A stretch of 64,000 nt of DNA from Pyrinomonadaceae bacterium (GCA_036009765.1 DASYLB010000044.1:6989-70988); one strand, 5' to 3'; shown: positions 2,618 to 61,995, numbered from the stretch's first letter. Notes: generated by a model from the letters alone, not told the origin. Made by a program: numbers and translations.

Positions 2618-3413
2618 GGTCGCGGCGCTACGAGCCAGCGGAGCTGGCGGAAAGAGTGATAGCCACAGGTGAGGCGAAGCCGAGCCTGGGGAAGGGGCCC
2701 ACGGAGCACTCCGAGCCCACGAAGTGGGCGGCAGTTACACAATGCAAGAAAATTGGCTTCGAACAAATCAAGGGATTGTTGTCCTACTTCTTGACGAATC
2801 CTGGATGGGGTGTGCAAGGTCAACACTGATCTTCAATCTCATTCTTGGTGGTAATCAAAATGTCCTACACAAACCTTCTCTATCGTATTGTTTATGGAAC
2901 CAAGGGACGTGTTCCCCTGATCACTAGCGACCTGAAAAGTGACCTGCACGGCTATCTTAGTGGGATTGTTCGAGGACTAAACTGCGTTCCAATTGAGATT
3001 AACTGAATGGCCGAACATGTTCACCTATTAGTCAGGATTCGTCCCACGATCTCGGTGTCGGACTTTTTGAGCAAGCCAAAGTCCAGCTCTTCTCTTTGGG
3101 CAAAGAGAAAAACGAAACGACGGTTCGCATGTCAAGCAAAGTATGGGGCTTTCACTGTCAGTGAATCTCAAGTCGGCTGAGTTCGGCAATACATTCGCAA
3201 TCAGGAGATGCATCATCGAAAGATATCATTTGAGCAGGAGTTCGAAGCCCTTCTCAGCGGAAATCGAATGGACTTTGATCGACGGGTTCTCTGGGCCTAA
3301 GTTGAAGCTGCCGCCCACTTCGTGGGCTCAAATGTCTAATGGGCCTTCTCCTCAGGCTCGGCTGCGCCTCACCTGGGGCTATTACTCTCTTCGCCAGCTT
3401 TGCTGGCTCGTTG
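2618..3413 (+). mobile_element. REPtron-like unit: RAYT/IS200-type Y1 transposase gene remnant flanked by ~108-bp imperfect inverted repeats
   Basis: 2618-2725 is the reverse complement of 3306-3413 with few mismatches in a hand alignment. Both arms carry small internal palindromes. The Y1 HUH gene lies between them. Confidence 0.7.
2860..3300 (+). pseudogene. IS200/IS605-family Y1 (REP-associated tyrosine transposase-like) gene interrupted by two in-frame TGA codons
   Basis: Single frame reads MSYTNLLYRIVYGTKGRVPL...IEIN*MAEHVHLLVRIRP...YGAFTVSESQVG*VRQYIRNQEMHHRKISFEQEF. It contains the HUH motif (HVHLLV) and the catalytic-Tyr motif (YIxNQxxHH). Internal TGAs at 3004-3006 and 3178-3180. 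No frameshift. Confidence 0.75.
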
Positions 3414-3547
3414 CCAGGATGAGATCGAGAGGCAATCAAGCGAAACGAAGGAAGAAGATCGAAGTCTCATGGTCGGGGAGGGGGCTTCCTGCCGCTCTTT
3501 CGCACTCAATGTGACTTTCCCCGTGTTGGTGCGTAGAATCCAACGCC

Positions 3548-5059
3548 GTGACCAACGAACCAATAACATTGAGACGAATTGCAGAAGTAACCGGCGGGAA
3601 GTTGTTTGGTGATCCGAACGGAGTTGTAACAGACGTCAGCCACGATTCGCGACGCGTCGGTCCGGACGGATTGTTTGTTGCCGTTCGCGGTGGGCTGTTT
3701 GACGCGCACAAGTTTCTGCCGCAGGTGATTGCACAAGGCGCAGTGGGGGTGCTTTCTGAACTTGAACCGTCTGAAGAATTGTTGGGAAGGCCGCTTGTCT
3801 CCGCTTCATTCGCCTGGATTCAAGTTGACGACGTCAGACGCGCCATGGCGTTGGCAGCGGCTGAAGTCCAACATCATCCTTCGAGAGAACTGAACCTCAT
3901 CGGCATCACCGGCACAAACGGCAAAACCACCACGGCGTATCTCATCGCTTCGATTCCCGAAGCGGCGGGTGAGCCGGTGGCGATGACTGGCACAGTCGAA
4001 TATCGTCTTGGCCCTGAACGTTTTAAAGCCGATCGCACCACGCCCGAAGCGACTGATATGCAGCGCATGCTGCGTCAGGCGGTGGAGATCGGTTGCAAAA
4101 CCGCGGTGATGGAAGCTTCTTCGCAAGCAATGGATTTTCATCGTTGCGACGCCCTCGATTACGCGGTCGCCGTTTTCTCGAACCTCACGCGCGATCATCT
4201 TGACTACCACAAGACGATGGAAAACTACTGGTACGCGAAGCAACGTCTATTTGATGGTCGACTGGGAACCCGGCCGCGCGTTTCAGTAATCAACCTTGAT
4301 GATCCTTATGGAGTTGAACTCGCTGAGAAACTGAAAAAGGAAGGGTTACAAGTCGTTACTTACGCAGTCGCAGCTGAAGCTGACGTCACCGCGCGAGACC
4401 CGGAGTTTTCACTCGATGGGATGCGTTTCAATTTGCGCACAGCCATGGGTAACCGTGACTTTCACTCGCCACTCGTAGGTCCGCCGCACATCTACAATAC
4501 TCTTGCTGCAGTCGCTAGCGGTTTGGCGCTTGATTATCACCTCGACATCATCACCAGTGCACTCGAAAAATGCACCGGCGCGCCGGGCCGTTTTGAGCGC
4601 GTGCCGCATGACGGAGATTTCGCGGTCGTAGTTGATTACGCACATAGCGACGATGCGCTGCTCAACGTGTTACGCACGGCCAGAGAAGTTACGAAGGGCA
4701 AGATTATTACGGTGTTTGGTTGCGGTGGGGACCGCGATGGTTCCAAGCGCGCGCCGATGGGCGAAGCGGCGGGCAGCTTGAGTGATGTAGTGATTCTTAC
4801 TTCTGACAATCCGCGTACGGAAGACCCGGAAAAAATCCTGGCTGACGCCGAGAAGGGAATTCAAAAGACCGGCAAGCCGTATCGAAAAATCGCTGACCGG
4901 CGCGACGCAATTCACCTGGCGATATCAGAAGCACGCACCGGTGATTTGGTGTTAATTGCAGGAAAGGGACACGAGGACTACCAGATTGTCGGTCGTGAGG
5001 TTTTCCACTTCGATGACAAAGAGGTTGCGCGCGAGGCACTCGGTTTGGTCAGGAAATAA
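3548..5059 (+). CDS. murE: UDP-N-acetylmuramoyl-L-alanyl-D-glutamate--2,6-diaminopimelate ligase
   Basis: Mur ligase P-loop GITGTNGKTTT. Also DYAHSDDAL, GCGGDRD and DNPRTEDP motifs. GTG start at 3548. Confidence 0.9.
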   Translation: MTNEPITLRRIAEVTGGKLFGDPNGVVTDVSHDSRRVGPDGLFVAVRGGLFDAHKFLPQVIAQGAVGVLSELEPSEELLGRPLVSASFAWIQVDDVRRAMALAAAEVQHHPSRELNLIGITGTNGKTTTAYLIASIPEAAGEPVAMTGTVEYRLGPERFKADRTTPEATDMQRMLRQAVEIGCKTAVMEASSQAMDFHRCDALDYAVAVFSNLTRDHLDYHKTMENYWYAKQRLFDGRLGTRPRVSVINLDDPYGVELAEKLKKEGLQVVTYAVAAEADVTARDPEFSLDGMRFNLRTAMGNRDFHSPLVGPPHIYNTLAAVASGLALDYHLDIITSALEKCTGAPGRFERVPHDGDFAVVVDYAHSDDALLNVLRTAREVTKGKIITVFGCGGDRDGSKRAPMGEAAGSLSDVVILTSDNPRTEDPEKILADAEKGIQKTGKPYRKIADRRDAIHLAISEARTGDLVLIAGKGHEDYQIVGREVFHFDDKEVAREALGLVRK

Positions 5060-11223: not shown

Positions 11224-11669
11224 TTTAGCCCGGCCTTTCAAGGCCGGAAACAATAATTGACCCACGACCTCCGTCGCGTCGCGACGGAATGAAATTGCAG
11301 AGATCTAGTCTTCATTGCGTCGCTGACGCGACGCGTAGTTTAAGGAACGAGGTGATCCCAGCCTTGAAAGGGCAATGACATACTTGACGAATCAACCGAA
11401 TTCGCAACCCGAAGGGTTTGCTAGAAAGTAGCCGGGGGTCGAAGCGCAGCGCAGACCCCGGGAACCAATCGATCAAGGATTTGCACCCTGAAAGGGGTGC
11501 CAGCCCAACTCTGTGACCCTTCCAGGGTCAAATATGATTGCCTTCTGATCCGGGGGTGTCGCTCTGCTCGACCTCCGGCTACTATCTCGCAGCCCTACGG
11601 GCTGCCTCGGTCTTATCTCGGAGGGTGTACTTGATTCGTCAAGTATGTCATTGCCCTTGAAAGGCTGGG
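11224..11669. repeat. Nest of at least three short repeat families (family H PALKGRAK-type, an outer 39-bp inverted-repeat pair, and an inner family D element)
   Basis: TTAGCCCGGCCTTTCAAGGCCGG at 11226. Palindromes CCGTCGCGTCGCGACGG and GCGTCGCTGACGCGACGC. Outer IR 11357-11395 / 11631-11669. Inner family D element 11427-11583. Confidence 0.7.
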
Positions 11670-12728: not shown

Positions 12729-12929
12729 GACGCAATACTCCTTTAGTGCTTTTTCGCGGTTCATGAGATTCATCGGGACTAGGTTGAGCCTGGATCGGGA
12801 ACGACGTTCTAGATTTTCGCCGTACTGACAGACAATTACAAGCGCGCAAAGGTTAGTGTCCTAGAATCAGTTTCTCAGTGACACCTCTGTGTGCCCTGTG
12901 CTGGACAGACGGCTTTGCACAAAAGGCAA

Positions 12930-13077
12930 GAAGAGCGGGGGCAAGCCCACCTTCCTCACCGCGAGCTAATTGGCGTTGAGATTGTGATCCCACTTTGAAC
13001 GGCTTTCGATGTGGCGCAAACCGTGCACAGACTGGTGAGGAAAACTCATCACCCCATAGCGGCTTGGGCAAAAGCGG
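12930..13077. repeat. MITE family A, degenerate copy
   Basis: The left arm AAGAGCGGGGGCAAGCCCACCTTCCTCACCGCGAG is intact. The right arm (GGTGAGGAA...GCTTGGGCAAAAGCGG) is decayed. Confidence 0.5.
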
Positions 13078-16525: not shown

Positions 16526-16548
16526 ACTTCAGTTAGCTTTTGGCTGCA

Positions 16549-16689
16549 AAGAGCGGGGGCAAGCCCACCTTCCTGACCTGCGAGACTACTCAAGTGGATC
16601 GACTACCTTGTCTTGAAAATCCTTCAAGCGCGGATGATGGCTCAACTGTGATCAGCTCTGGGCGGGAAGGCGGGCTTGCCCCCGTTCTT
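16549..16689. repeat. MITE family A, complete copy
   Basis: Arms AAGAGCGGGGGCAAGCCCACCTTCCTGACC / GGCGGGAAGGCGGGCTTGCCCCCGTTCTT. It fills the convergent gap between ATP-grasp and DUF2071, and its right end runs into the DUF2071 stop codon. Confidence 0.8.
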
Positions 16690-17401
16690 AATCTTCGATT
16701 TTCTTGAGCGGCCAGATCTCGACGCTGAGTTCTTCGCAGTAGTGGAGCAATGGATCGCCGGACGGCATGGGAAGACGATGCGATTCGATCATGCTTGAAC
16801 TGAGCGTCGTGAGTTCTGCTTTTCGCAAGGGCCACGGTTGGTGATGAATGCGCGCGCGATAGAGTTTGCCGTTATGCTCACAGTCCAGCGCGTAACGCTC
16901 GGTTAAGAAAAACTCGAGCGAGCCGGGAAAAGTTGGCGGCAACGCTTCGCCGATATTCCAGGTCGCTTGAAGTTCCGCAGGCGCACCGCGTCGATCTTTT
17001 CGCACTGATGAATAACCAATCGAATTACCAGTCTGACTTAACAACATCAGCGCGTTGAAATACGGCAGGTGATAAAACGTGCGTGCTCCCAAAACAGCGA
17101 GACGATTTGCGGCGTCAAGAGAGAGGAACAACACGCTGGCAACGCCCTCGTGATAAACGTAAGTACGCACGTTCAGTTCATGAAACGCGCTGGTACCGGG
17201 AATCGCCGGCAGGAATGAAGCGCGAATACCCCACATCGTAAAGGGCACGACGCCAATCCAAGCCGAGCCGTCGAAGGTGTCGATTTCGAGTTGCCGCGGA
17301 ATGAGCGGGCGCAGCAGCGCCGGATCGATGCGCCAATGCATGAAGAGTAGCTTGCCCCAATTCTGATACATGATCGGCCTGCCGAGAGGGCGCTCGCGCA
17401 T
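16688..17401 (-). CDS. DUF2071 (YqjF-like) protein
   Basis: LLFMHWRIDPALLRPLIP...FDGSAWIGVVPFTMWGIR...FHELNVRTYV is the DUF2071 pattern. Start is ambiguous (ATG 17401 or 17371). The ORF extension to 17476 lies inside a MITE. Confidence 0.75.
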   Translation of the reverse strand: MRERPLGRPIMYQNWGKLLFMHWRIDPALLRPLIPRQLEIDTFDGSAWIGVVPFTMWGIRASFLPAIPGTSAFHELNVRTYVYHEGVASVLFLSLDAANRLAVLGARTFYHLPYFNALMLLSQTGNSIGYSSVRKDRRGAPAELQATWNIGEALPPTFPGSLEFFLTERYALDCEHNGKLYRARIHHQPWPLRKAELTTLSSSMIESHRLPMPSGDPLLHYCEELSVEIWPLKKIED

Positions 17402-17462
17402 GCCAAGGCGATCGGCGGCAGTAGGGTCCGAAGGTTTCACAAGCAGAAGAATGGAGAAGAAA

Positions 17463-17615
17463 AAGAGCGGGGGCAAGCCGCCCTTCCCGACCGCGAGACT
17501 CTCATACTTGAGAGACGACTCTTAGCTTGTATGTCATTGCAAAGCGATCTCGCTCGAACTGCGGACTCAAGTTGAGCAGTCTCGGGGTCAGGAAGGGTGG
17601 CTTGCCCCCGCTTCT
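17463..17615. repeat. MITE family A, complete copy
   Basis: AAGAGCGGGGGCAAGCCGCCCTTCCCGACC ... GGTCAGGAAGGGTGGCTTGCCCCCGCTTCTT. Confidence 0.8.
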
Positions 17616-17625
17616 TTCGATCATG

Positions 17626-18318
17626 CTACGGTGCCGGGTTCTTCATCACGACGATCACTGAATTCTTCACACCGTAATCGTCGTCTTTCGTGTTCGGATT
17701 CTCCGGATCAAGCAGCCAGTTTCCGTCGATGATGAACTTGTACGCGTGCTCACCTGGTTCCAGATCGATACGGCAAATCCATTCATCGCCTGCGCGTGCA
17801 AGAACGTATTGTGATTGGTTCCAGTTGTTGAAAGAGCCGGCCAGCGCGACGATACTCGCATCAGCGTAGCCCTTCAATCTGAACGTTGTGTTGCCCTTGA
17901 GACTTGGCGGCGGGAGCGTAACTCTAGCAGCAATATACTTCGCGCCTTCGTATGCAAATTCGACGCTGACAATCTTGCCATCCTCGTCTTTGTTGAAGGA
18001 GAGTGGCGTGCCTTCGATTTCGTCAACGAACACTGTCTTCGATTTGTGCAGCAGTCTACGTTTCTTAACGACTGACGGCTTCACCCAAAGCTCGCCATTT
18101 TCCAAGGTGACGTCGAGGGTTGAGACAGGAATGATGCCGGCGTCGATTCCGTATCTGCCGACGTATTTCTTTAAAGTTTCAGGATCGATCTTGCGAGGCG
18201 CCGGTTGTTGGAGCGGCGATGAGGTCAGTACCGCTTGCGGTAGCGGGCGGGTCTCACCGATGGAAGATAAGAGAAATACACAAAGCATCAAGTGCAAACT
18301 ACTCATGCGATCCCCCAT
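17626..18318 (-). CDS. Secreted protein with C-terminal CBM48/AMPK-beta-type glycogen-binding module
   Basis: GSFNNWNQSQYVLARAGDEWICRIDLEPGEHAYKFIIDGNWLLDPENP matches the CBM48 pattern. Signal peptide MSSLHLMLCVFLLSSIG. The second ATG at 18306 may be the real start. Confidence 0.7.
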   Translation of the reverse strand: MGDRMSSLHLMLCVFLLSSIGETRPLPQAVLTSSPLQQPAPRKIDPETLKKYVGRYGIDAGIIPVSTLDVTLENGELWVKPSVVKKRRLLHKSKTVFVDEIEGTPLSFNKDEDGKIVSVEFAYEGAKYIAARVTLPPPSLKGNTTFRLKGYADASIVALAGSFNNWNQSQYVLARAGDEWICRIDLEPGEHAYKFIIDGNWLLDPENPNTKDDDYGVKNSVIVVMKNPAP

Positions 18319-20504: not shown

Positions 20505-20608
20505 ATATGAACTCCATTCTATTTACAGGGCTGGTTTGGGAGTTGAGGCACATGAATCATACAACTAATGAGAGATGAAGTCAGTAGCAGCGTCAAGTGA
20601 TGCTGGGA

Positions 20609-20757
20609 ACGAGCGGGGGCAAGCCCCCTTCCTTACGCTGAGGCTACTGCCTTGAGGCGTCACTTCGACCGAGATCGCTTTTCAATGGCGCAAGTTCAGA
20701 ATCGTAATCTCAAGTATGAGAGTCTCGCGGGTGGGAAGGGTGCCTTGCCCCCGCTCC
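20609..20757. repeat. MITE family A, complete copy, inverted relative to 17463-17615
   Basis: ACGAGCGGGGGCAAGCCCCCTTCCTTACGC ... GGGTGGGAAGGGTGCCTTGCCCCCGCTCCT. Its interior is the reverse complement of the 17463 copy interior. Confidence 0.8.
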
Positions 20758-20782
20758 TGTCTTAGCCAATCACTTGACGCGC

Positions 20783-22925: not shown

Positions 22926-23107
22926 AAGAAGGTAGGCAGAGTTGAAACGTCTGCAGTGCGCGTCCAATGTTTCAAGCGCATCGGAGATGCGCAGCGAAGG
23001 TAGCCGGAGGTGAAACCTCTGGATCACTTCAACGCGCAATCAATTGAATTACTCTTGTCACCAGACGTTTCACGTCTGGCTACCTTCTGTGCGCATCGCC
23101 GATGCGC
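22926..23107. repeat. Repeat family F (GAAGGTAGCC..GTGAAAC..CTGG): inverted pair plus an extra partial unit
   Basis: GCGCATCGGAGATGCGCAGCGAAGGTAGCCGGAGGTGAAACCTCTGG (22976-23022) pairs with CCAGACGTTTCACGTCTGGCTACCTTCTGTGCGCATCGCCGATGCGC (23061-23107). A partial unit lies at 22926-22965. Confidence 0.6.
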
Positions 23108-25429: not shown

Positions 25430-25447
25430 CCCGAAAGATTAGTAGAA

Positions 25448-25526
25448 AGTAGCCGGTGGTCGAAGCGCAACCTAGACCACCGGCTAATATCCGCCAACCC
25501 TCCGGGGAAGACGCCAACCGGCTACT
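25448..25526. repeat. Repeat family D, short copy (AGTAGCCGGTGGTCGAAGCGC ... CCGGCTACT)
   Basis: The ends match the family D termini at 11427 and 61675. Confidence 0.55.
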
Positions 25527-28795: not shown

Positions 28796-28927
28796 TTCGA
28801 GTTCAGCGTCTCGGAAAATCAAGCAGGAAAAGTTTGATATTATTCGGCGACGACAGATGTTATCGTTGAAATGCCCTTTTTGCACAGACTCCAGCGGCGC
28901 AGAGAAGTACGTTGGTCAGTGAGACCA

Positions 28928-29071
28928 CTCAAGCAAATTGCTGGGACCGCGGGCGTGCCGCCAGCAACGCGCCGTGGGCGCGCAGTTCTTACGAATGTTG
29001 CCTGCAACCCATTTTTCTCGCTCCGCGCTCATTGCGGGCGGGACGCCCGCGGTCCCAGCAATTCGCTTGAG
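28928..29071. repeat. MITE family B, complete copy
   Basis: Arms CTCAAGCAAATTGCTGGGACCGCGGGCGTGCCGCC / GCGGGCGGGACGCCCGCGGTCCCAGCAATTCGCTTGAG. Its interior is homologous, in reverse complement, to the interior of 38530-38666. Confidence 0.8.
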
Positions 29072-29111: not shown

Positions 29112-30707
29112 ATGACATCACTGATCATTCACGGTCACTTCTACCAACCGCCGCGTGAGAATCCGTGGACTGGAATTATCGACCCCGAACCGAGTGCGCG
29201 TCCGTTTCACGATTGGAATGAACGCATTCAAGCGGAATGTTACGAGCCGAACAGCGCTGCCCGAATTCTTGTAGACGGCGCCGAACGAATCGTCAACAAC
29301 TACGCGCATATAAGTTTTGACTTTGGTCCTACGTTGCTTTCCTGGCTCCAGAAATCTCATCGCGAAACTTACCTGAGGATCATAGCCGCCGATCAAGAAA
29401 GCGCCGGCAAGCACGCCGGACACGGCAACGCAATAGCTCAAGCCTACAATCACGCGATCTTGCCGCTCTGTAACGAGCGTGATCGCTGCACCCAGGTACG
29501 CTGGGGCATCGAGGACTTTCGCTATCGCTTCGGTCGTGAACCGGAGTCGATGTGGCTGCCCGAGACGGCCTGTAATGACGACGTTCTAGGTTTGCTGATC
29601 GACGAAGGGTTGCGTTTTGTAATTCTCGCTCCGCAGCAAGCCGAACGCGTTCGGTGTACGTCACGCATACCTGCCTGTCCTGGTGAGATGAAAGAAGAAG
29701 TTGCTGGACAGACTGGAAAGTCTGTCCTACCAGAATCTGAATGGCTAAACGTGGGTCGCGACAAAATCGACACCAGCATCGCCTACAGCTACTTCCATCG
29801 TGATGGTTCGCGGCGATCTATCGCGGTGTTCTTTTATGATCAAGAACTAGCACACGGCATTGCCTTCGAACAGGCGTTGAGCTCGAGCGGTGAACTCGTA
29901 AATCGCTTTGAACAACGAAGAGTCCCAGCAGCGGGTTTGCTCAATATCGCCACGGATGGCGAGACCTATGGACATCACCACAAGTTTGGTGACATCTGTC
30001 TCGCTTACGCATTGGCAGTCGATGGACCTGCGCGCGGTTTTTCGTTGACGAACTACGGAGAATATCTCGATCAGTATCCGCCGGAGTGGGAAGTCGAAAT
30101 CAACAACGGTTTGGCAGGCGAAGGTAGTTCATGGAGTTGTGTACATGGTGTCAGCCGTTGGATTCGTGATTGTGGTTGTCATACTGGTGGCGAGCCCGGC
30201 TGGAACCAGGCCTGGCGAACCCCTTTGCGCGCGGCGCTTGATTTCCTGCGTGACGAAATGGCGATCTATTTTGAGGGCACGCGCGGTGAATTGTTTACTG
30301 ATCCGTGGGTGGCAAGAGATGACGCGGTTAGTTTGGTGCTCGACGAATTCAAGTCGCGCGAAGAGTTTCTTTACGCGCATGCGCCGCGCTCGCTTTCGCG
30401 CGAACAGCAACAACGGGCTTTGCTGTTCCTCGAGTTGCAGCGGAGTGCGTTGCTTATGTACACGAGTTGTGGCTGGTTCTTCAGTGATATTTCGGGAATT
30501 GAACCAATCCAGATTTTGAAGTACGCCGGCCGCGCTCTTGATTTGATGAATCAACTGGGCCTGCCCTCGTTGCGCGCGCAGTTCCTCAAGATACTGGCTG
30601 AGGCAAAGAGCAATCGTCCGGAGTTCGGAAACGGCGCGAACATTTTTCGCCAACTGGTTGAGCCGTTGCAAGCTAGAACCATTAACGATGAAGCAGTAGT
30701 GGGTTAA
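29112..30707 (+). CDS. GH57-family glycoside hydrolase (DUF3536-containing type)
   Basis: The N-terminus LIIHGHFYQPPRENPW is the GH57 signature. Also ATDGETYGHH. ATG at 29112. Confidence 0.85.
   Translation: MTSLIIHGHFYQPPRENPWTGIIDPEPSARPFHDWNERIQAECYEPNSAARILVDGAERIVNNYAHISFDFGPTLLSWLQKSHRETYLRIIAADQESAGKHAGHGNAIAQAYNHAILPLCNERDRCTQVRWGIEDFRYRFGREPESMWLPETACNDDVLGLLIDEGLRFVILAPQQAERVRCTSRIPACPGEMKEEVAGQTGKSVLPESEWLNVGRDKIDTSIAYSYFHRDGSRRSIAVFFYDQELAHGIAFEQALSSSGELVNRFEQRRVPAAGLLNIATDGETYGHHHKFGDICLAYALAVDGPARGFSLTNYGEYLDQYPPEWEVEINNGLAGEGSSWSCVHGVSRWIRDCGCHTGGEPGWNQAWRTPLRAALDFLRDEMAIYFEGTRGELFTDPWVARDDAVSLVLDEFKSREEFLYAHAPRSLSREQQQRALLFLELQRSALLMYTSCGWFFSDISGIEPIQILKYAGRALDLMNQLGLPSLRAQFLKILAEAKSNRPEFGNGANIFRQLVEPLQARTINDEAVVG
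29662..29730. repeat. Palindromic mini-element embedded in frame in the GH57 gene
   Basis: Perfect hairpin GGACAGACT-GGAA-AGTCTGTCC at 29706-29727. The 25-nt string GGACAGACTGGAAAGTCTGTCCTAC is identical to 31539-31563 in glgB. Confidence 0.65.
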
Positions 30708-30764
30708 GTTGCTAAACTATTCCTGGTGCAAGTGCCGGGTTTCCAATTCATCTTCTCCGTGAAA

Positions 30765-30853
30765 CCTTTGTGCTTTGTGTCTCTGTGGTGGATGGACTCT
30801 AAGCGGAAGATTCACCACTGATACACAGAGAACACTGAGGACCCACAGAGAAC
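30765..30853. repeat. Repeat family G (CACAGAGA-type) inverted repeat between GH57 and glgB
   Basis: CCTTTGTGCTTTGTGTCTCTGTGGTGGA pairs with TTCACCACTGATACACAGAGAACACTGAGG, followed by ACCCACAGAGAAC. Confidence 0.5.
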
Positions 30854-30891
30854 TTCAATGAGGACACGACCAAGTAGCGCGCGACTTTCGC

Positions 30892-32994
30892 ATGCCGAAA
30901 AAGTCTCAAAGCAAATCAACCAAGGGTCGCACGGGGAAAAGTTCGAAGCTCGCGATTAAGCAAGATATTCAGAAGCGTCGCGTCTCGACTTCACCAGAAT
31001 CTCAAGCTGCAGATTCACTCCCACCCATTCTCGGCGAACTTGATCTTCACCTCTTCGGCGAAGGTCGCCACGAACTGATCTACCAAAAACTCGGGGCGCA
31101 TCTGATCACTCACGAAGGCGTCGAAGGAGTTTCATTTGCAGTCTGGGCGCCGGCGGCCGCGCAGGTAAGCGTCGTCGGTAACTTCAACGACTGGGAGGGC
31201 GCCAAACACCCGCTGCGCGCGCTTGGCAGCTCCGGAGTTTGGGAAACTTTCATTCCCGGGTTGCAGGCAGGCGAGCTTTACAAATATCAGATCAAGACGC
31301 CAGGTCTGCCAGTATTTCTCAAAGCCGACCCTTACGCTTCCTTTGCAGAAGAACCACCCGACACTTCGTCGATTGTCTACCAGTCGAGCTATCGTTTTCG
31401 CGATGCGCGCTGGCTGAAGAAACGCGACGGCCGCGAACATTTTCGCCAACCGCTGTCGATCTATGAAGTTCACTTCGGATCGTGGCGCCGCAAAGTAAGA
31501 CAGACATTCCTGTCTGTCGAAGCGGAAGAGGAAAACGGGGACAGACTGGAAAGTCTGTCCTACAAAGAAGGCGAAGCGAAGGACCGTCCGTTCAGCTATC
31601 GCGAGATGGCGGAACCGCTGGCTGAATATGTTTTGGCGATGGGCTTCACGCACGTCGAGTTTCTGCCGTTGAAGGAACATCCTTACGGACCGTCCTGGGG
31701 TTACCAGGTCAGCAACTACTATGCGCCTTCCGCTCGCTATGGAACGCCCGACGATCTTCGTTACCTGATCGATTACCTGCACCAGCGAGGCATTGGCGTA
31801 ATCATGGATTGGGTGCCGGCGCACTTTCCCAAAGATGCTTTTGCACTCGGGCGGTTTGACGGCACCGCACTCTACGAACATCTCGACCCGCGCAAAGGTG
31901 AGCATCCCGATTGGGGCACCTACATTTTCAACTACGGCCGCAATGAAGTGCGGAATTTCCTGCTGGCGAATGCGCTTTACTGGTTCAAGGAATTTCATCT
32001 CGACGGCCTGCGCGTAGATGCGGTGGCTTCAATGCTTTATCTCGATTACAGCCGCAAAGAGGGAGAGTGGGTGCCAAATCAGTTTGGCGGACGCGAAAAC
32101 CTCGAGGCAATTTCGCTGCTGAAAGAATTGAATGAGGCGGTCCATCGCGTCTGCCCCGGCGCCATGATGATCGCGGAAGAATCAACCGCGTGGCCGCAGG
32201 TTAGTCATCCGGTTTATGCCGGCGGACTCGGCTTTGATTTCAAATGGAACATGGGCTGGATGCACGACACGCTCAAATACTTCCAAACCGATCCACTGTT
32301 TCGGGTTGGTAATCACAATGCGCTGACGTTTGGGTTGCTTTATGCGTGGAGTGAAAATTTTGTGCTGCCGTTTTCACACGACGAAGTTGTTCACATGAAG
32401 GGCTCGTTGCTGAACAAGATGCCCGGCACAACGGAACAGAAGTTTGCCAACCTGCGCGCGCTGTATGGATACATGTGGATGCATCCGGGAAAGAAGCTTT
32501 TGTTTATGGGTGGTGAGTTTGGGCAGTGGCGCGAGTGGAACGAAACCGAGAGCCTTGACTGGCATCTGCTTGAAGAGCCGGCGCACAAAGGAGTACAGGA
32601 TTTAATTCGTGAACTCAATCGCGTCTACTTGAAAAAGAATGCGCTTTGGGAAGTTGACGGCGAACCTGAGGGCTTTCAGTGGATCGACGCAAACAACGGG
32701 GCGGAAAATATTGTTTCGTTCATACGTCGCGCACGATCGACCGGCCGCGAGCTGATCTGCGTCGGCAACTTCGCGCCGGTGTTGCGCGAAAACCATCAGC
32801 TTGGGTTACCGAGACCGGGAACTTACCGTTTGATCTTAAACACTGACGATGAAAGGTATGGCGGCAGTGGGATGAAATTGCCGAAGTCGATTAAGGCGAA
32901 AGAGGAACCATTTCACGGACAGGCATATTCAGCGACTATAACGTTGCCGCCGCTCGCGACGTTGTGGTTTGAAGCGTTTGCGAGCGTCAAGTAA
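30892..32994 (+). CDS. glgB: 1,4-alpha-glucan branching enzyme
   Basis: Full-length GH13_9 pattern: SFAVWAP, IYEVHFGSWRR, DWVPAHFP, GLRVDAVASMLY, MIAEESTAWP and SHDEVVH. Confidence 0.92.
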   Translation: MPKKSQSKSTKGRTGKSSKLAIKQDIQKRRVSTSPESQAADSLPPILGELDLHLFGEGRHELIYQKLGAHLITHEGVEGVSFAVWAPAAAQVSVVGNFNDWEGAKHPLRALGSSGVWETFIPGLQAGELYKYQIKTPGLPVFLKADPYASFAEEPPDTSSIVYQSSYRFRDARWLKKRDGREHFRQPLSIYEVHFGSWRRKVRQTFLSVEAEEENGDRLESLSYKEGEAKDRPFSYREMAEPLAEYVLAMGFTHVEFLPLKEHPYGPSWGYQVSNYYAPSARYGTPDDLRYLIDYLHQRGIGVIMDWVPAHFPKDAFALGRFDGTALYEHLDPRKGEHPDWGTYIFNYGRNEVRNFLLANALYWFKEFHLDGLRVDAVASMLYLDYSRKEGEWVPNQFGGRENLEAISLLKELNEAVHRVCPGAMMIAEESTAWPQVSHPVYAGGLGFDFKWNMGWMHDTLKYFQTDPLFRVGNHNALTFGLLYAWSENFVLPFSHDEVVHMKGSLLNKMPGTTEQKFANLRALYGYMWMHPGKKLLFMGGEFGQWREWNETESLDWHLLEEPAHKGVQDLIRELNRVYLKKNALWEVDGEPEGFQWIDANNGAENIVSFIRRARSTGRELICVGNFAPVLRENHQLGLPRPGTYRLILNTDDERYGGSGMKLPKSIKAKEEPFHGQAYSATITLPPLATLWFEAFASVK
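31499..31563. repeat. Palindromic mini-element embedded in frame in glgB (two opposed hairpins)
   Basis: GACAGACA-TTCC-TGTCTGTC (31499-31518) and GGACAGACT-GGAA-AGTCTGTCC (31539-31560). Confidence 0.65.
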
Positions 32995-37398: not shown

Positions 37399-37429
37399 GG
37401 AAGCAGCGACCTGCAATCGTTTCCGGAGT

Positions 37430-37595
37430 GACATGAAGTCAGTACCACCTGCGGTAGCGGGTGGGTCTTTTGATTGGCCATTTGCAATTGTCGATTGCAG
37501 ATTGGCTGACACTGGAATATTAATCTGAAACCTACATTCGACCTTCAGCAACGGACAGACCCACCCGCTACCGCAGGTGGTACTGACCTCATGCC
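37430..37595. repeat. Repeat family C, complete copy with 38-bp near-perfect terminal inverted repeats
   Basis: GACATGAAGTCAGTACCACCTGCGGTAGCGGGTGGGTC ... GACCCACCCGCTACCGCAGGTGGTACTGACCTCATGCC. It ends 10 nt before the murQ ATG. Confidence 0.8.
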
Positions 37596-37604
37596 ACTAT
37601 CTTA

Positions 37605-38519: not shown

Positions 38520-38529
38520 TGCAAGACTG

Positions 38530-38666
38530 TTCAAGTGAATTGCTGGGACCGCGGGCGTCCCGCCCGCAATGAGCGCGAAGCGCGAAAGATAAAAGTGTCA
38601 ACGAAACCTTCGCGCCTGTCGGCGCGTTGCGGGCGGGACGCCCGCGGTCCCAGACAATCTCTTGAG
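38530..38666. repeat. MITE family B, complete copy
   Basis: TTCAAGTGAATTGCTGGGACCGCGGGCGTCCCGCCCGC ... GCGGGCGGGACGCCCGCGGTCCCAGACAATCTCTTGAG. Confidence 0.8.
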
Positions 38667-38694
38667 TGGTTGTGACATACGGTTTCAAAAGTTC

Positions 38695-39597: not shown

Positions 39598-39602
39598 GTT
39601 GA

Positions 39603-39735
39603 AAGAGCTGGGGCAGCCCGCCTTCCCGACCCCGAGACTTTCTAACTGTACCGGTCGTTCTAACCTTGAGCGCCCTTCAAGACTTGGCGATCAACGATAA
39701 TCAGCTCATGGTGAGGAAGGTGGTTGCCCCCGCTG
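39603..39735. repeat. MITE family A, complete copy
   Basis: AAGAGCTGGGGCAGCCCGCCTTCCCGACC ... GGTGAGGAAGGTGGTTGCCCCCGCTGG. Lies 5 nt after the hydrolase stop and 19 nt before the transporter ATG. Confidence 0.8.
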
Positions 39736-41368: not shown

Positions 41369-41383
41369 TTCAGAAACTACAAA

Positions 41384-41524
41384 TAGCGGGGGCAAGCCCG
41401 CCTTCCTGACCCTGAGCTGACTATCGTTGAGCGCCAATCCGTTGATTGAAAGGATCTCGAGGTTAGAGCAACCGGTCCAGTTAGAAAGTTTCGGGGTCGG
41501 GAAGGGCGGCTTGCCCTCGCTGCT
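41384..41524. repeat. MITE family A, complete copy, inverted relative to 39603-39735
   Basis: ATAGCGGGGGCAAGCCCGCCTTCCTGACC ... GGTCGGGAAGGGCGGCTTGCCCTCGCTGC. Its interior is the reverse complement of the 39603 copy interior. Confidence 0.8.
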
Positions 41525-41537
41525 TCGCTTCTTTTTT

Positions 41538-46323: not shown

Positions 46324-46353
46324 AAGATCGCTGCTCGAGAGTTACGCGTCAGT

Positions 46354-46467
46354 GACATGAGGTCAGTACCACCAGGCGGTAGCCGGTGGGTCGTTTTGAG
46401 ATCATCCGCTGAAGATCAAAAGGGGTTCCGAACCCAGCGGCTACCGCCTGGTGGTACTGACCTCATC
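46354..46467. repeat. Repeat family C, complete short copy
   Basis: GACATGAGGTCAGTACCACCAGGCGGTAGCCGGTGGGTC ... ACCCAGCGGCTACCGCCTGGTGGTACTGACCTCATC. Confidence 0.8.
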
Positions 46468-46538
46468 TCACAGTCGGGCAGAGATTGAACGGTTCGGTCG
46501 AATTCAAACTGCATCAGTGCCCAAGAACAGTCTAAGGG

Positions 46539-55382: not shown

Positions 55383-57455
55383 ATGACAAGACTGTCTCTA
55401 TCACTCTGTCTTATGGTTGCGTTGCTCGGGCAGGTAATAAGCCAATCCGATAAAAAGACGGCGCCACTTTCGCAAGCGGCGGCGCATGTGGCCAAACAGG
55501 AGCGCGCCCTCAAACGGCGGGCGTCGTTCAACTCCACCCGAGAATTGCTGCGAAAGGAAAATGTTCCATTTGATCCGGAACTCTTGTTGAGCAGCAACTG
55601 GCGCAAGATGTTGGCGGGAACGCTGGCGGCAATGCCACAGATGCACGCGGTGCGTGGCGAAGCTGGGAATTTGCGAGGCGCCTACCTGGCAGACGTCCTC
55701 CGCTTACCCGAGCGCGTGACGCTTACCGGAGACACCGTCATTCTGGCGAACAAAGTCGTTTTTGACGGAACTGACGTTCTTATTAGTGGGCCATATGATT
55801 TCTCTCTCCTGGCGGTGGAACAAGTGGGTACCCTGGCTGACTCTGCTCGCTCAGCTGACAGTGAAGGCGCGCCGACTTTCCTCAAGACCAACTTCACACC
55901 TCGAGAGAGCCTGAGCAATGCGGTTGTCTCCCAGAGCCACATTACTATCGACGTGAGTGGAGGAATTCGTCGTAAGATCACTCAGAGTTTCAATACCCGA
56001 GGACCGCTAACTGATAGCGGGTTTGCGATCGTTCCCACTAGCTGGGGCGGAAGTTTGAAGGAAATGCCGGCGTTTCTCACTCAGAGCAGCGACGGAGCGC
56101 CGGGCTCGCCGGGATCAAATGGAGGCAATGGTGCTAACGGAGACAACGGAAGAAATGGAGAAGAAGGAAGATTTGGAAACTGCAATGAGGATGGCGGCAA
56201 TGCTCCTACTCTCGGATTGTCATCACCTTCGGAAGGCCACGCCGGTGTGAAAGGGGGAGACGGTGGGACCGGAGGCACGGGTGACCACGGAGGGACTGTT
56301 AACCTGGATATACCAGCCGGATCCACATCCACCTTTACCTTAAGCGCGAAAGGAGGAGCCGGTGGGCCAGGTGGCGGTGGCGGAAATGGTGGCGATGGCG
56401 GTGACGGTGGCAACGGCGGTAATGGCGGGGGCTCCGCCAGACAATGCGCCTGCACGGATCATCCGGGCAAAGGCGGTAACGCCAGCAGTGGCAAGAACGC
56501 CGGCGCCGGTGGCGATGGCGGCAAGGGAGGAAATGGAGGCCAGGGAGGTTCAGGAGGGACGATCAATGTCACCTACTACTCCAGTCAGGCCTTTAACTTT
56601 ACTGCCGATGCCTCCGGAGGTGATCGAGGTGAGAAAGGAATCGGAGGCCAGGGCGGACAAGCCGGTACTCACGGCAATGGCGGACAGGGCGGTGTGGGCG
56701 GCGCGCTAATGGATTCCTGCCCACCGCCGCGAGAAGGTGCGAATGGAAATAACGGAGACGATGGCCTGCCGGCGTCTCCGGGTTTTGACAGTGCCGACGG
56801 GACAATTGGCACATTTGGCTCAAACGGCACTCTGAACTTAACGGAGTTTGAGGAGTCATGCGATGAGGGTGAGGAGTGGGTGTGCCATCAGGACCACGCC
56901 CTCTGGTACGGTTTTCCTGAGTGCTATTGCGAATACACTCCGATCATCATCGATACCGCGGGCGATGGGTTCGCGCTTACAGATGCAGCCCATGGTGTGC
57001 TATTTGATTTGAACCTCGATGGTACTCCGGAACGTCTTGCCTGGACGACCGCCAAGTCCGACGATGCCTGGCTAGCCCTTGATCGCAATGGCAATGGGCT
57101 TATAGACAACGGCAAGGAACTATTCGGAAACAGTGCCAGCTGGGCCAACGGTTTTCTCGCGCTCCGTGATTATGATCAAGCCGAAAACGGTGGCAACGGT
57201 GATGGCGCTATCACCAGTCGAGATTCCCTTTACGCCGGCTTGCGACTCTGGAAAGATGCAAATCACAACGGGATATCAGAACAGGGCGAATTACATACGC
57301 TATCAAGTTTGGGGGTAGCGTCGATCTCAGTTGATTACAACGAGTCGCGCCTCAGAGATGAATACGGGAATCTGTTCCGCTACCGGGCAAAGGTAGGCGG
57401 AAGCTCAAACGTGGGACGGTGGGCCTACGATGTGTTCCTCGTTTCGAGTCATTGA
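55383..57455 (+). CDS. Secreted glycine-rich (GGX/PGRS-like) repeat protein with Cys-rich linker and C-terminal EF-hand-type calcium-binding domain
   Basis: GAAGGAGGAG RBS precedes ATG 55383. Signal peptide [21 protein letters not shown]. Blocks such as [26 protein letters not shown] alternate with short beta-like segments. C-terminal loops [13 protein letters not shown] and [12 protein letters not shown]. Confidence 0.7.
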
Positions 57456-58789: not shown

Positions 58790-58825
58790 CGATTGAACAG
58801 ATTCAACCGTTTTGCACAAAGGCAA

Positions 58826-58969
58826 AAAGAGCGGGGGCAAGCCCGCCTTCCCGACCCTGAGACTCCTAAGCTTTCTCGATTGCTTCACATTGAAAGCCGT
58901 TCAACGTGAGATCAGAATCTCAACGCTGATCAGCTCGGGGTGAGGAAGGTGGGCTTGCCCCCGCTCTTC
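58826..58969. repeat. MITE family A, complete copy
   Basis: AAGAGCGGGGGCAAGCCCGCCTTCCCGACC ... GGTGAGGAAGGTGGGCTTGCCCCCGCTCTTCC. The flanking TTGCACAAAGGCAAAA / TTTTTTGCAAAG extends the pairing. Confidence 0.8.
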
Positions 58970-59013
58970 CTGCTTTTTTGCAAAGCCCGCTGAATTAACT
59001 TCGCGCTACTCAC

Positions 59014-61547: not shown

Positions 61548-61676
61548 ATGGACTGCAAAATCATTACGATTGAACCTGGCAAGCGCAGCGGCAAGCCGTG
61601 CATTCGAGGAATACGTATTACAGTCACTGTCGTGCCCGTTTCATTAAACGAGGCAGCCCGAAGGGTTGCGAGATAG
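61548..61676 (+). pseudogene. DUF433 (antitoxin-like) gene remnant, 3'-truncated
   Basis: MDCKIITIEPGKRSGKPCIRGIRITV matches the DUF433 core (GKPxIxGTRI). The reading frame then degenerates and stops where the family D repeat begins. Confidence 0.5.
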
Positions 61677-61759
61677 TAGCCGGGGGTTGAGCGTAGCGAT
61701 ACCCCCGCAGCAGCAGGCAATTGTATTTTGACCCTGAAAGGGTCACAGAGTTAGCCCGG
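61675..61759. repeat. Repeat family D, half copy
   Basis: AGTAGCCGGGGGTTGAGCGTAGCGATACCCCCG...TTTGACCCTGAAAGGGTCACAGAGTTAGCCCGG is homologous to the reverse complement of 11500-11590. The partner arm is missing. Confidence 0.6.
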
Positions 61760-61775
61760 TCGTTGAGTGGTAAAG

Positions 61776-61995
61776 AGTAGCCGACTACTTCTTGCTACTC
61801 AACGACTAGTGTTTAGGACTAGACGAGTAGTGTTCCCGGGTAGCTGACCAGTGTTGAGGACTAGACGACTAGGCTTCATGACTAGCCGACTATTGTTCAT
61901 CACTCAAAGACTATTGTTTATCATTAGACGACTAGTAATGAGGACGACACCATTTGGGTTCATGACTAGCTGACTAGTGTTAACAACTAGACGTC
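61776..61995. repeat. Tandem array of ten full 21-bp units plus one partial unit, consensus ACTAGMCGACTAGTGTTCATG
   Basis: Units start at 61776, 61797, 61818, 61839, 61860, 61881, 61902, 61923, 61944, 61965 and 61986 with no phase slip. Confidence 0.85.

Follow-up and report, generated by a model that had tools for sequence, protein, structure and literature searches.

In-frame palindromic repeats, probably REPINs, in two adjacent glycogen-metabolism genes of a Pyrinomonadaceae bacterium

We have found that two adjacent genes of glycogen metabolism in a Pyrinomonadaceae bacterium, one for a GH57-family glycoside hydrolase and the other (glgB) for the 1,4-alpha-glucan branching enzyme, carry related palindromic inserts that leave the reading frames intact. 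The genes lie in a 64-kb stretch of DNA (GCA_036009765.1, DASYLB010000044.1:6989-70988), hereafter the window. Each insert is very probably a REPIN, that is, a pair of inverted repetitive extragenic palindromic (REP) hairpins with GTAG tags, belonging to a family associated with REP-associated tyrosine transposases (RAYTs) and inserted in frame. We observed directly the anatomy of the inserts, the repeat family and its association with RAYT genes of other genomes; the same holds for their insertion, as judged against orthologous sites that are empty, and for the conservation of their nucleotides.

Results

Anatomy of the two elements

The features are given below in window coordinates, with the two candidate REPINs numbered in order; L- and P-numbers are labels of relatives' loci and proteins.

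29112-30707, + strand: host gene 1, GH57-family glycoside hydrolase with DUF3536, 531 aa (Pfam PF03065 and PF12055, Glyco_hydro_57 + DUF3536)
29656-29680, + strand: REPIN-1 left arm, decayed REP unit GTACGTCACGCATACCTGCCTGTCC, read (C)TSRIPACP; GTAGGACAGGCATTCCTGCCTGTCC is intact at the same site in L119, L205 and L206
29681-29705, + strand: REPIN-1 spacer, 25 nt, read GEMKEEVA; among orthologous loci 1-37 nt long and also different in sequence
29706-29730, - strand: REPIN-1 right arm, intact REP unit, GTAG-GACAGACTTTCCAGTCTGTC-C on the - strand; + strand read GQTGKSVL(P); 24-25 of 25 nt identical in L119, L121, L205, L207 and L208
30892-32994, + strand: host gene 2, glgB, 1,4-alpha-glucan branching enzyme, 700 aa (Pfam CBM_48, Alpha-amylase, Alpha-amylase_C)
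31495-31519, + strand: REPIN-2 left arm, REP unit GTAAGACAGACATTCCTGTCTGTCG, read VRQTFLSV; two mismatches to the consensus; orthologues have GTAGGACAGACATTCCTGTCTGTCC or a GGC variant
31520-31538, + strand: REPIN-2 spacer, 19 nt, read EAEEENG; in orthologues from 1-2 nt (simple doublets in L206 and L121) up to a four-unit array of ~165 nt (L119)
31539-31563, - strand: REPIN-2 right arm, intact REP unit identical to 29706-29730; + strand read DRLESLSY

The identity of host gene 2 is supported by a 100% match of its product to a protein named GlgB in a metagenome-assembled genome (MAG) of Pyrinomonadaceae.

An earlier note on this DNA had reported that both genes share a 25-nt palindrome. Indeed, the string GGACAGACTGGAAAGTCTGTCCTAC occurs on the + strand in two identical copies, at 29706-29730 and 31539-31563, and forms a 9-bp stem with a GGAA loop; its 22-mer core has two matches in the window versus none in 100 shuffles that preserved dinucleotides. 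Both copies are right arms of inverted doublets, located at 29656-29730 in the GH57/DUF3536 gene and at 31495-31563 in glgB. The paired-arm anatomy thus agrees with that note, while the lengths, estimated there as ~65 nt, were measured as 69-75 nt.

Each arm is a REP unit, in which the tag GTAG stands on the 5' side and the hairpin GACAG(A/G)C-ATTCC-G(T/C)CTGTC comes next. Read on the opposite strand, the right arms are GTAG-GACAGACTTTCCAGTCTGTC, with the tag intact in both, as it also is at orthologous sites; the left arms are GTAA/GTAC-GACAGAC-ATTCC-TGTCTGTC, in which GTAA and GTAC are decayed forms of the tag. The opposed hairpin claimed for glgB is real (AGACAGACATTCCTGTCTGTCG, 31498-31519), and in its closing pair A-T and T-A are exchanged when compared with the right arm, a compensatory change. 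The 81-nt stretch 31490-31570, which contains the 69-nt glgB element, folds as one long hairpin (-32.7 kcal/mol, z = -5.7). The decayed left arm claimed for the GH57 gene is also real: it lies at 29656-29680 and departs from the family variant GTAGGACAGGCATTCCTGCCTGTCC at four positions. When the 64 kb were scanned with up to five mismatches allowed, exactly four units came out, i.e. the four arms, and 20 shuffles scanned with up to six mismatches gave 0-1 matches each. Within these 64 kb the window carries just two REPIN elements of the GACAG[A/G]C-ATTCC family.

The peptides AGQTGKSVLP (GH57) and GDRLESLSY (GlgB) are read in different frames, both free of stops, as was confirmed by translation of the two long open reading frames (ORFs), each with Pfam support. 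The top strand of the doublet is always GTAG...CTAC, and the frame G-TAG contains a stop, so that two frames are left. The glgB frame is GTA-GGA-CAG (VGQ...) and the GH57 frame is xGT-AGG-ACA (RTG...); the right arm has no stop in any of its three frames. That the same DNA is read in two stop-free frames can be attributed to survivorship among insertions, because GTAG contains TAG. To judge by the intact reading frames, each insert amounts to a loop extension of ~25 residues per enzyme.

Filled and empty orthologous sites

The gene order GntR - Ion_trans_2 - GH57 - GlgB is kept in relatives. One of these, L122, lacks both elements; its glgB site reads ...GSWRRKVEEENRPFTYREM (RRKVEEENRPF) and its GH57 site ...APQQAKRVRTKSGEWL (RVRTKSGEWL). 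The alignment with orthologues proposed in the earlier note bears out the insertion: relative to the palindrome-free L122, the window proteins are longer at the insert sites by 25 residues in GlgB and by 24 in GH57. The glgB genes of L206 and L209 are 89% identical in nucleotide sequence; at the site, exactly 57 nt separate them, and a perfect doublet makes up 51 of these. In other relatives, intact doublets were found at exactly these sites, e.g. C-GTAGGACAGGCATTCCTGCCTGTCC-37 nt-GGACAGACTGGAAAGTCTGTCCTAC-GA in the GH57 gene of L119.

Among the 120 GlgBs closest to that of the window, the segment from IYEVH to EFLP is empty in 52 (40-41 aa), has one or two extra residues in 28 and is filled in the remaining 40 (+7 to +55 aa). 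As a baseline of loop length we used 62 more distant GlgBs from the metagenome scan, those in which the segment could be delimited; it has 39-48 aa there versus 71 aa in the window. The GH57 site is empty in only ~6 of 121 orthologues, and the others hold 10-60 residues of REP-derived sequence, including remnants (e.g. ...SISVLPGEW) and tandem doublets (L208, L205 and P0249). No target-site duplication was visible in the comparisons of filled with empty sites. The insertions are old, and very variable in the Pyrinomonadaceae, where decayed, duplicated and nested forms occur.

In the GH57 loop of P0247, P0271, P0297, P0309 and P0337 a different palindromic insert (peptide IPPGSPAGQPRWGGPA) is nested in the REP, and in P0337 the right arm is read in the frame used in glgB (DRQECLSY). 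Such sequences give the GH57 loop the look of a landing site open to repeats of several types. Other length differences were seen in glgB. The alignment of L206 with L209 has a further in-frame indel of 36 nt (columns 1853-1889, near residue 619; QSAATDRATETA) that is not obviously REP-like. In four distant relatives (L133:1173-3973, L136:5001-8083, L141:5001-8144 and L182:4068-7039) a tblastn match of ~650 residues spans 2.8-3.1 kb, which suggests ~1 kb of extra sequence within glgB.

Position of the inserts in the proteins

The GlgB insert comes directly after the conserved YEVHFGSW motif. The alignment to the Mycobacterium tuberculosis GlgB (PDB 3K1D) breaks exactly at the insert, with query residues 63-98 opposite chain residues 257-260, so that the insert falls between the blocks YEVHLGSWR and LSYRQLA aligned to the solved structure; from the known GH13 fold we take these blocks to be strand beta1 and helix alpha1 of the catalytic barrel. 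The alignment was used in place of the AlphaFold model of GlgB, whose mean predicted local distance difference test score (pLDDT) of 54.6 is too poor for loop placement. The AlphaFold model of the GH57 protein (pLDDT 76, predicted template modelling score 0.79) matches solved GH57 structures; a PDB sequence search with this protein gave no match. In the model the insert, residues 187-207, follows strand 177-182, has no secondary structure and has pLDDT below 50. Mapping onto structures, which had been suggested as a check, therefore puts the GlgB insert between blocks aligned to solved GlgBs and the GH57 insert in an unstructured, low-confidence loop of a model. Both sites fit tolerated surface loops, although this is not proof.

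The repeat family and its spread

We scanned one genome per species, 185,579 species in all, with the 20-nt hairpin core GACAGACWGGAAWGTCTGTC as query. At least 150 matches, spread over at least 118 stretches of genome and at least eight phyla, were found, compared with ~4 expected by chance (an estimate for uniform base composition); the further copies of the hairpin that the earlier note had proposed to look for thus exist in large number. Among the 150 matches listed, the core is followed by CTAC (GTAG on the strand of the hairpin) in 90 (60%), by CCAC (GTGG) in 15 and by CTCC in 17, and for 71 (47%) a partner in inverted orientation lies no more than 150 nt upstream, the median spacer being 43 nt. 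The family also includes single arms and arrays of units in the same orientation. The usual form in Acidobacteriota is GTAGGACAGGCATTCCTGCCTGTCC - spacer - GACAGACAGGAATGTCTGTCCTAC.

Hosts in the Acidobacteriota, among the matches listed, are Pyrinomonadaceae, Blastocatellia, Chloracidobacterium and Terriglobia. Those in the Planctomycetota include the isolate Aquisphaera insulae and a MAG with contigs of 434-723 kb; Chloroflexota are represented by Ktedonobacteria and Anaerolineae, and Bacteroidota by Chitinophagaceae, Saprospiraceae and Ignavibacteria. KSB1, Caldithrix, Latescibacterota, Xenobia and Binatia are further hosts. Several genomes have at least 4-9 separate loci each.

The family is mainly extragenic, as expected for REPs, because only 40 of the 150 matches listed fall inside greedily called ORFs, which cover 85% of the loci. 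Most of these lie at the ends of ORFs or in ORFs that lack Pfam support, and they give no reliable count of in-frame copies, which had been proposed earlier as a check. The two copies in the window are exceptions to the extragenic habit of the family.

Association with RAYT genes

To find RAYTs, all ORFs of the fetched loci were searched with an Escherichia coli RAYT sequence as a lead, and matches were confirmed with Pfam and by using one match as query. ORFs with the Y1_Tnp domain (PF01797) and with HUH and Y..NP motifs adjoin the repeat in L043, L013, L123 and L124, which represent four phyla. In L043 (Xenobia) the RAYT gene lies between GTAGGACAGGCATTCTTGCCTGTC at 3402-3425 (+) and GTAGGACAGACATTCCTGTCTGTC at 3952-3975 (-). 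The gene in L013 (Chitinophagaceae) is abutted by five alternating units at 70-nt spacing, that in L124 (Planctomycetaceae) has GTGGCACAGACATTCCTGTCTGTG on both sides, and that in L123 (Acidobacteriia) has a variant doublet upstream and GTAGGACAGACATTCCTGCTTGTC downstream. Homologues of the RAYT protein are 55-78% identical across phyla, and many are named 'REP element-mobilizing transposase RayT' by JGI. The contigs that encode RAYTs are mostly very short, which suggests that the repeats break assemblies.

A separate observation was made in the MAG 'bacterium B46_G16' (QNEE01000060.1), where L118:2350-7293 (+) is a stop-free frame of 1648 aa with Type ISP/IIG restriction-modification domains. 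The frame contains five in-frame REP arrays (peptides VGQTFLSV and EQAGMPVLP), and a complete RAYT (aa ~705-850) lies between two of them; a whole unit of RAYT and REPs thus appears, from the sequence, to be embedded in frame in a host ORF.

Conservation of the hairpins and alternative explanations

Stem pairing was evaluated over 21 distinct intragenic units. In total, 91.5% of stem cells are paired, with double-sided changes in four of the nine stem pairs, but the units are related and were chosen by similarity to the consensus, so the covariation test is supportive rather than decisive. Neither the observed pairing nor the observed covariation was attained in any of 500 shuffles, and pairing was 22-36% in slid registers. 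Orthologous arm variants tend to be double-sided: examples are GGACAGCCAGGAATGGCTGTCCTAC in the GH57 gene of L206 (read GQPGMAVL), GGACAGGCAGGAAAGCCTGTCCTAC and GTAGGACAGACTTTCCAGTCTGTC in the glgB genes of L207 and L205, respectively, and GTAGGACGGGCATACCTGCCCGTC in the GH57 gene of L207. Four-fold degenerate sites of the window are only 44-59% identical to those of L121, L122 and L205-L208. The right arm in GH57 is kept in the five relatives listed above at 24-25 of 25 positions, and the spacers vary freely in both length and sequence. The arms are either under constraint at the nucleotide level or renewed from the genomic REP population.

These data bear on the idea that the hairpins were exapted, i.e. 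that after a REPIN origin they are now kept by host selection as nucleic-acid structures in the GH57-glgB transcript or DNA. Possible roles would be mRNA stabilization or processing, translational pausing between domains, or a site for a GGA-loop-binding protein such as a CsrA-like carbon-storage regulator. Exaptation is compatible with a REPIN origin and differs only in the reason for persistence. It would account for arms that stay nearly identical while four-fold sites diverge and spacers evolve freely, for compensatory stem changes made at the cost of altering the peptide (GQTGKSVL to GQPGMAVL in L206) and for the occupation of both sites in most relatives; the GGAA loops in the sense RNA of the right arms and the role of both host genes in glycogen metabolism point the same way. 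However, an identical hairpin stands at at least 150 unrelated sites in many phyla, the left arms have UUCC loops in sense RNA, and in many lineages one arm or both are degraded or gone although the genes remain. Neither a CsrA-like motif encoded in the window nor an Rfam match nor a sense-strand T-run after the hairpins was found, and re-seeding or gene conversion from genomic REPs would yield equal conservation. On balance we regard exaptation as unlikely. More specific candidates were rejected: a CsrA-type GGA hairpin as primary explanation, given the wide occurrence of the hairpin in unrelated contexts, the opposite loop in left arms, the mid-ORF location and the absence of a CsrA-like motif from the window; and an intrinsic terminator, given that the sense strand has no T-run and that antisense matches are only weak. 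The search for known RNA families gave no Rfam match at the gathering threshold or at E <= 1.

[quoted passage not shown] We consider it very improbable, as the arms are hairpins in themselves and have a GTAG foot, the signature of REPs, single arms and same-orientation arrays exist, filled and empty sites differ without a visible target-site duplication, and the associated gene encodes a Y1/HUH transposase and not a DDE enzyme. Coincidence, or a conserved peptide module behind the shared 25 nt, has nothing in its favour beyond the translation of both segments; it is refuted by the use of two frames with unrelated peptides, by the zero matches in shuffles and by orthologues in which presence or absence follows the DNA palindrome, and we give it practically no weight.

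Other repeats in the window

The window contains several other repeats. An intergenic inverted-repeat family with core AAGAGCGGGGGCAAGCCCGCCTTCC, often in doublets ~50-70 nt apart, occurs at 12921-13019, 16548-16705, 17455-17618, 20608-20761, 39602-39723, 41381-41532 and 58811-58984. A palindromic family, ..GGGACCGCGGGCGTCCCGCCCGC.., is found at 2550-2600, 28922-29071 and 38524-38671, with one doublet ~40 nt upstream of the GH57 start codon. Another family of GTAG-tagged hairpins (GTAGCCGGAGGTGAAACCTCTGG / GTAGCCAGACGTGAAACGTCTGG) is located at 22976-23107 (a doublet), 11415-11462, 25436-25483 and 61663-61690; with this second GTAG-tagged family, the genome carries several REP-like families. 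Inverted repeats with core GGTCAGTACC..GGTAGCGGGTGGG lie at 18219-18262, 37427-37598 and 46347-46476. There are also a 9-nt-periodic G-rich repeat at 56110-56656 (GGNGGNxxN units), probably a Gly-rich coding repeat, and a 21-nt tandem repeat at 61775-61978, near the window end (GACTAG.CGACTAGT...).

Discussion

We propose that the REP family would be copied in trans by RAYT, a Y1/HUH transposase acting on single-stranded DNA and related to IS200 TnpA, which would recognize the hairpin and its 5' GTAG foot. In an ancestor of some Pyrinomonadaceae, one REPIN would have entered the GH57 loop and another the site just after the YEVHFGSW motif of GlgB. In useful genes, the only survivors would be insertions that keep the frame and avoid the TAG of GTAG, and these would be translated as loop extensions of ~25 residues tolerated by the enzymes; the inserts are presumably neutral for enzyme function. 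Later, both sites may have behaved as REP clusters, in which units decayed, were duplicated in tandem, received nested insertions or, in some lineages, were lost.

Several observations weigh against this explanation. The 64-kb window has no RAYT gene, and none was present in the Pyrinomonadaceae loci examined; mobilization by a RAYT in the lineage of the window is presumed. In ~130 kb around the operon in eight related genomes the family is all but confined to the two intragenic sites (an intergenic copy occurs once, in L205), and such near-restriction is not as expected of a freely proliferating element. The near-perfect conservation of arms across saturated synonymous divergence is unexplained by a purely neutral passenger. 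The filled and empty pairs define no target-site signature, an ambiguous outcome, and the translation of the inserts is read from intact frames alone.

Some of this would be accommodated if the intragenic arms were kept as hairpins by selection or by continual RAYT-dependent renewal, and if the REP/RAYT pair had spread horizontally over at least eight phyla and readily colonized ORFs in frame, with L118 as the extreme case. We offer this extension only tentatively and consider it rather doubtful; if true, selection or RAYT-dependent renewal would explain how the arms outlast saturated synonymous divergence and change by compensatory pairs.

If REPINs they are, elements whose very name calls them 'extragenic' are able to form and reshape surface loops in core enzymes of metabolism, here in a soil phylum that has been little studied. 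Together the two sites form a natural series (empty, filled, doubled, nested and decayed) across hundreds of metagenomic orthologues, which could be used to estimate rates of REPIN gain, loss and conservation, and could test whether host benefit or transposase activity causes persistence, a question argued in the REPIN-RAYT literature. On the practical side, the repeats inflate loop lengths in alignments of GlgB and GH57 proteins. Of specialist interest are the persistence of the arms at the nucleotide level in coding sequence, the recurrent remodelling of two loops and the identity of REPs and RAYTs across phyla.

Comparison with known systems

The earlier note had likened the inserts to Rickettsia palindromic elements (RPEs), reportedly described by Ogata et al. 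in 2000. RPE-1 is longer, about 100-150 nt, and we know of no dedicated transposase for RPEs. The likeness holds for behaviour: in both cases palindromic repeats stand in frame in unrelated, otherwise conserved proteins and add tolerated peptide segments. A kinship with the Rickettsia elements is not expected, since the inserts are GTAG REPINs of a RAYT-associated family, in our favoured reading; by description, they are set apart from RPEs by the tag (GTAG versus CGTC) and by the host lineage. In Rickettsia conorii, RPE-4 and RPE-6 are CGTC REPs (Di Nocera 2013, PMC3733652).

The TnpA (Y1) enzymes of IS200/IS605, which move by 'peel and paste', belong to the same family, PF01797, and likewise use a hairpin and an adjacent tetranucleotide on single-stranded DNA; seamless excision of this type would explain the clean pairs of filled and empty sites. 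Unlike IS200/IS605, the present elements have no IS body, and the transposase gene is separate and would act in trans. In addition, unlike IS200/IS605 transposition, REP mobility driven by RAYT is association-based here and not fully demonstrated in the literature either.

The closest likeness is to GTAG REPs and REPINs with RAYTs, which share the short hairpin, the 5' GT[AG]G foot, inverted doublets with spacers of 1-120 nt, clusters and a mostly extragenic location (Nunvar 2010, PMC2817692; Bertels & Rainey 2011, PMC3116915; PMC3733652; PMC6006769), as well as RAYT genes with HUH, WQ and Y..NP motifs flanked by the same hairpins. An abstract in this literature reports the RAYT gene as usually single-copy. 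REPIN-RAYT systems are described, in the abstract of 10.1101/2022.05.22.493013, as mostly vertically inherited, unlike the present case with one 24-nt REP across at least eight phyla; horizontal spread of tnpA-REP genes was argued by Quentin (2018, PMC6006769).

The earlier note had also held the phenomenon to be undescribed for organisms of this kind, which is correct in part. Di Nocera (2013, PMC3733652) described 24 GTAG families in Proteobacteria, Cyanobacteria, Chloroflexi and the Planctomycetes-Verrucomicrobia-Chlamydiae (PVC) group, and reported only TIR-associated Y1 transposases, with no GTAG REPs listed, for Acidobacteria. None of six 20-mers of the GACAG[A/G]C-ATTCC family was found in the searchable literature or in the supplements of PMC3733652. 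However, the same paper reports, in other phyla, REPs located wholly within ORFs, more than half of them as dimers or groups encoding 20-30 aa. The inserts resemble those of Opitutus terrae, Thauera, Xanthomonas and others, which are dimers inside ORFs that add 20-30 residues, sometimes twice per gene, and the recB REPs of Xanthomonas occupy about the same site in related species, as do the inserts in relatives of the window (PMC3733652). In contrast to those intragenic REPs, for which DNA-repair genes were emphasized, the hosts here are enzymes of glycogen metabolism, both of two neighbouring genes carry inserts, and the sites stay occupied through family-level divergence, with duplication, nesting and decay. 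The phenomenon is therefore already known, and what is new is the sequence family, the host phylum and the host genes.

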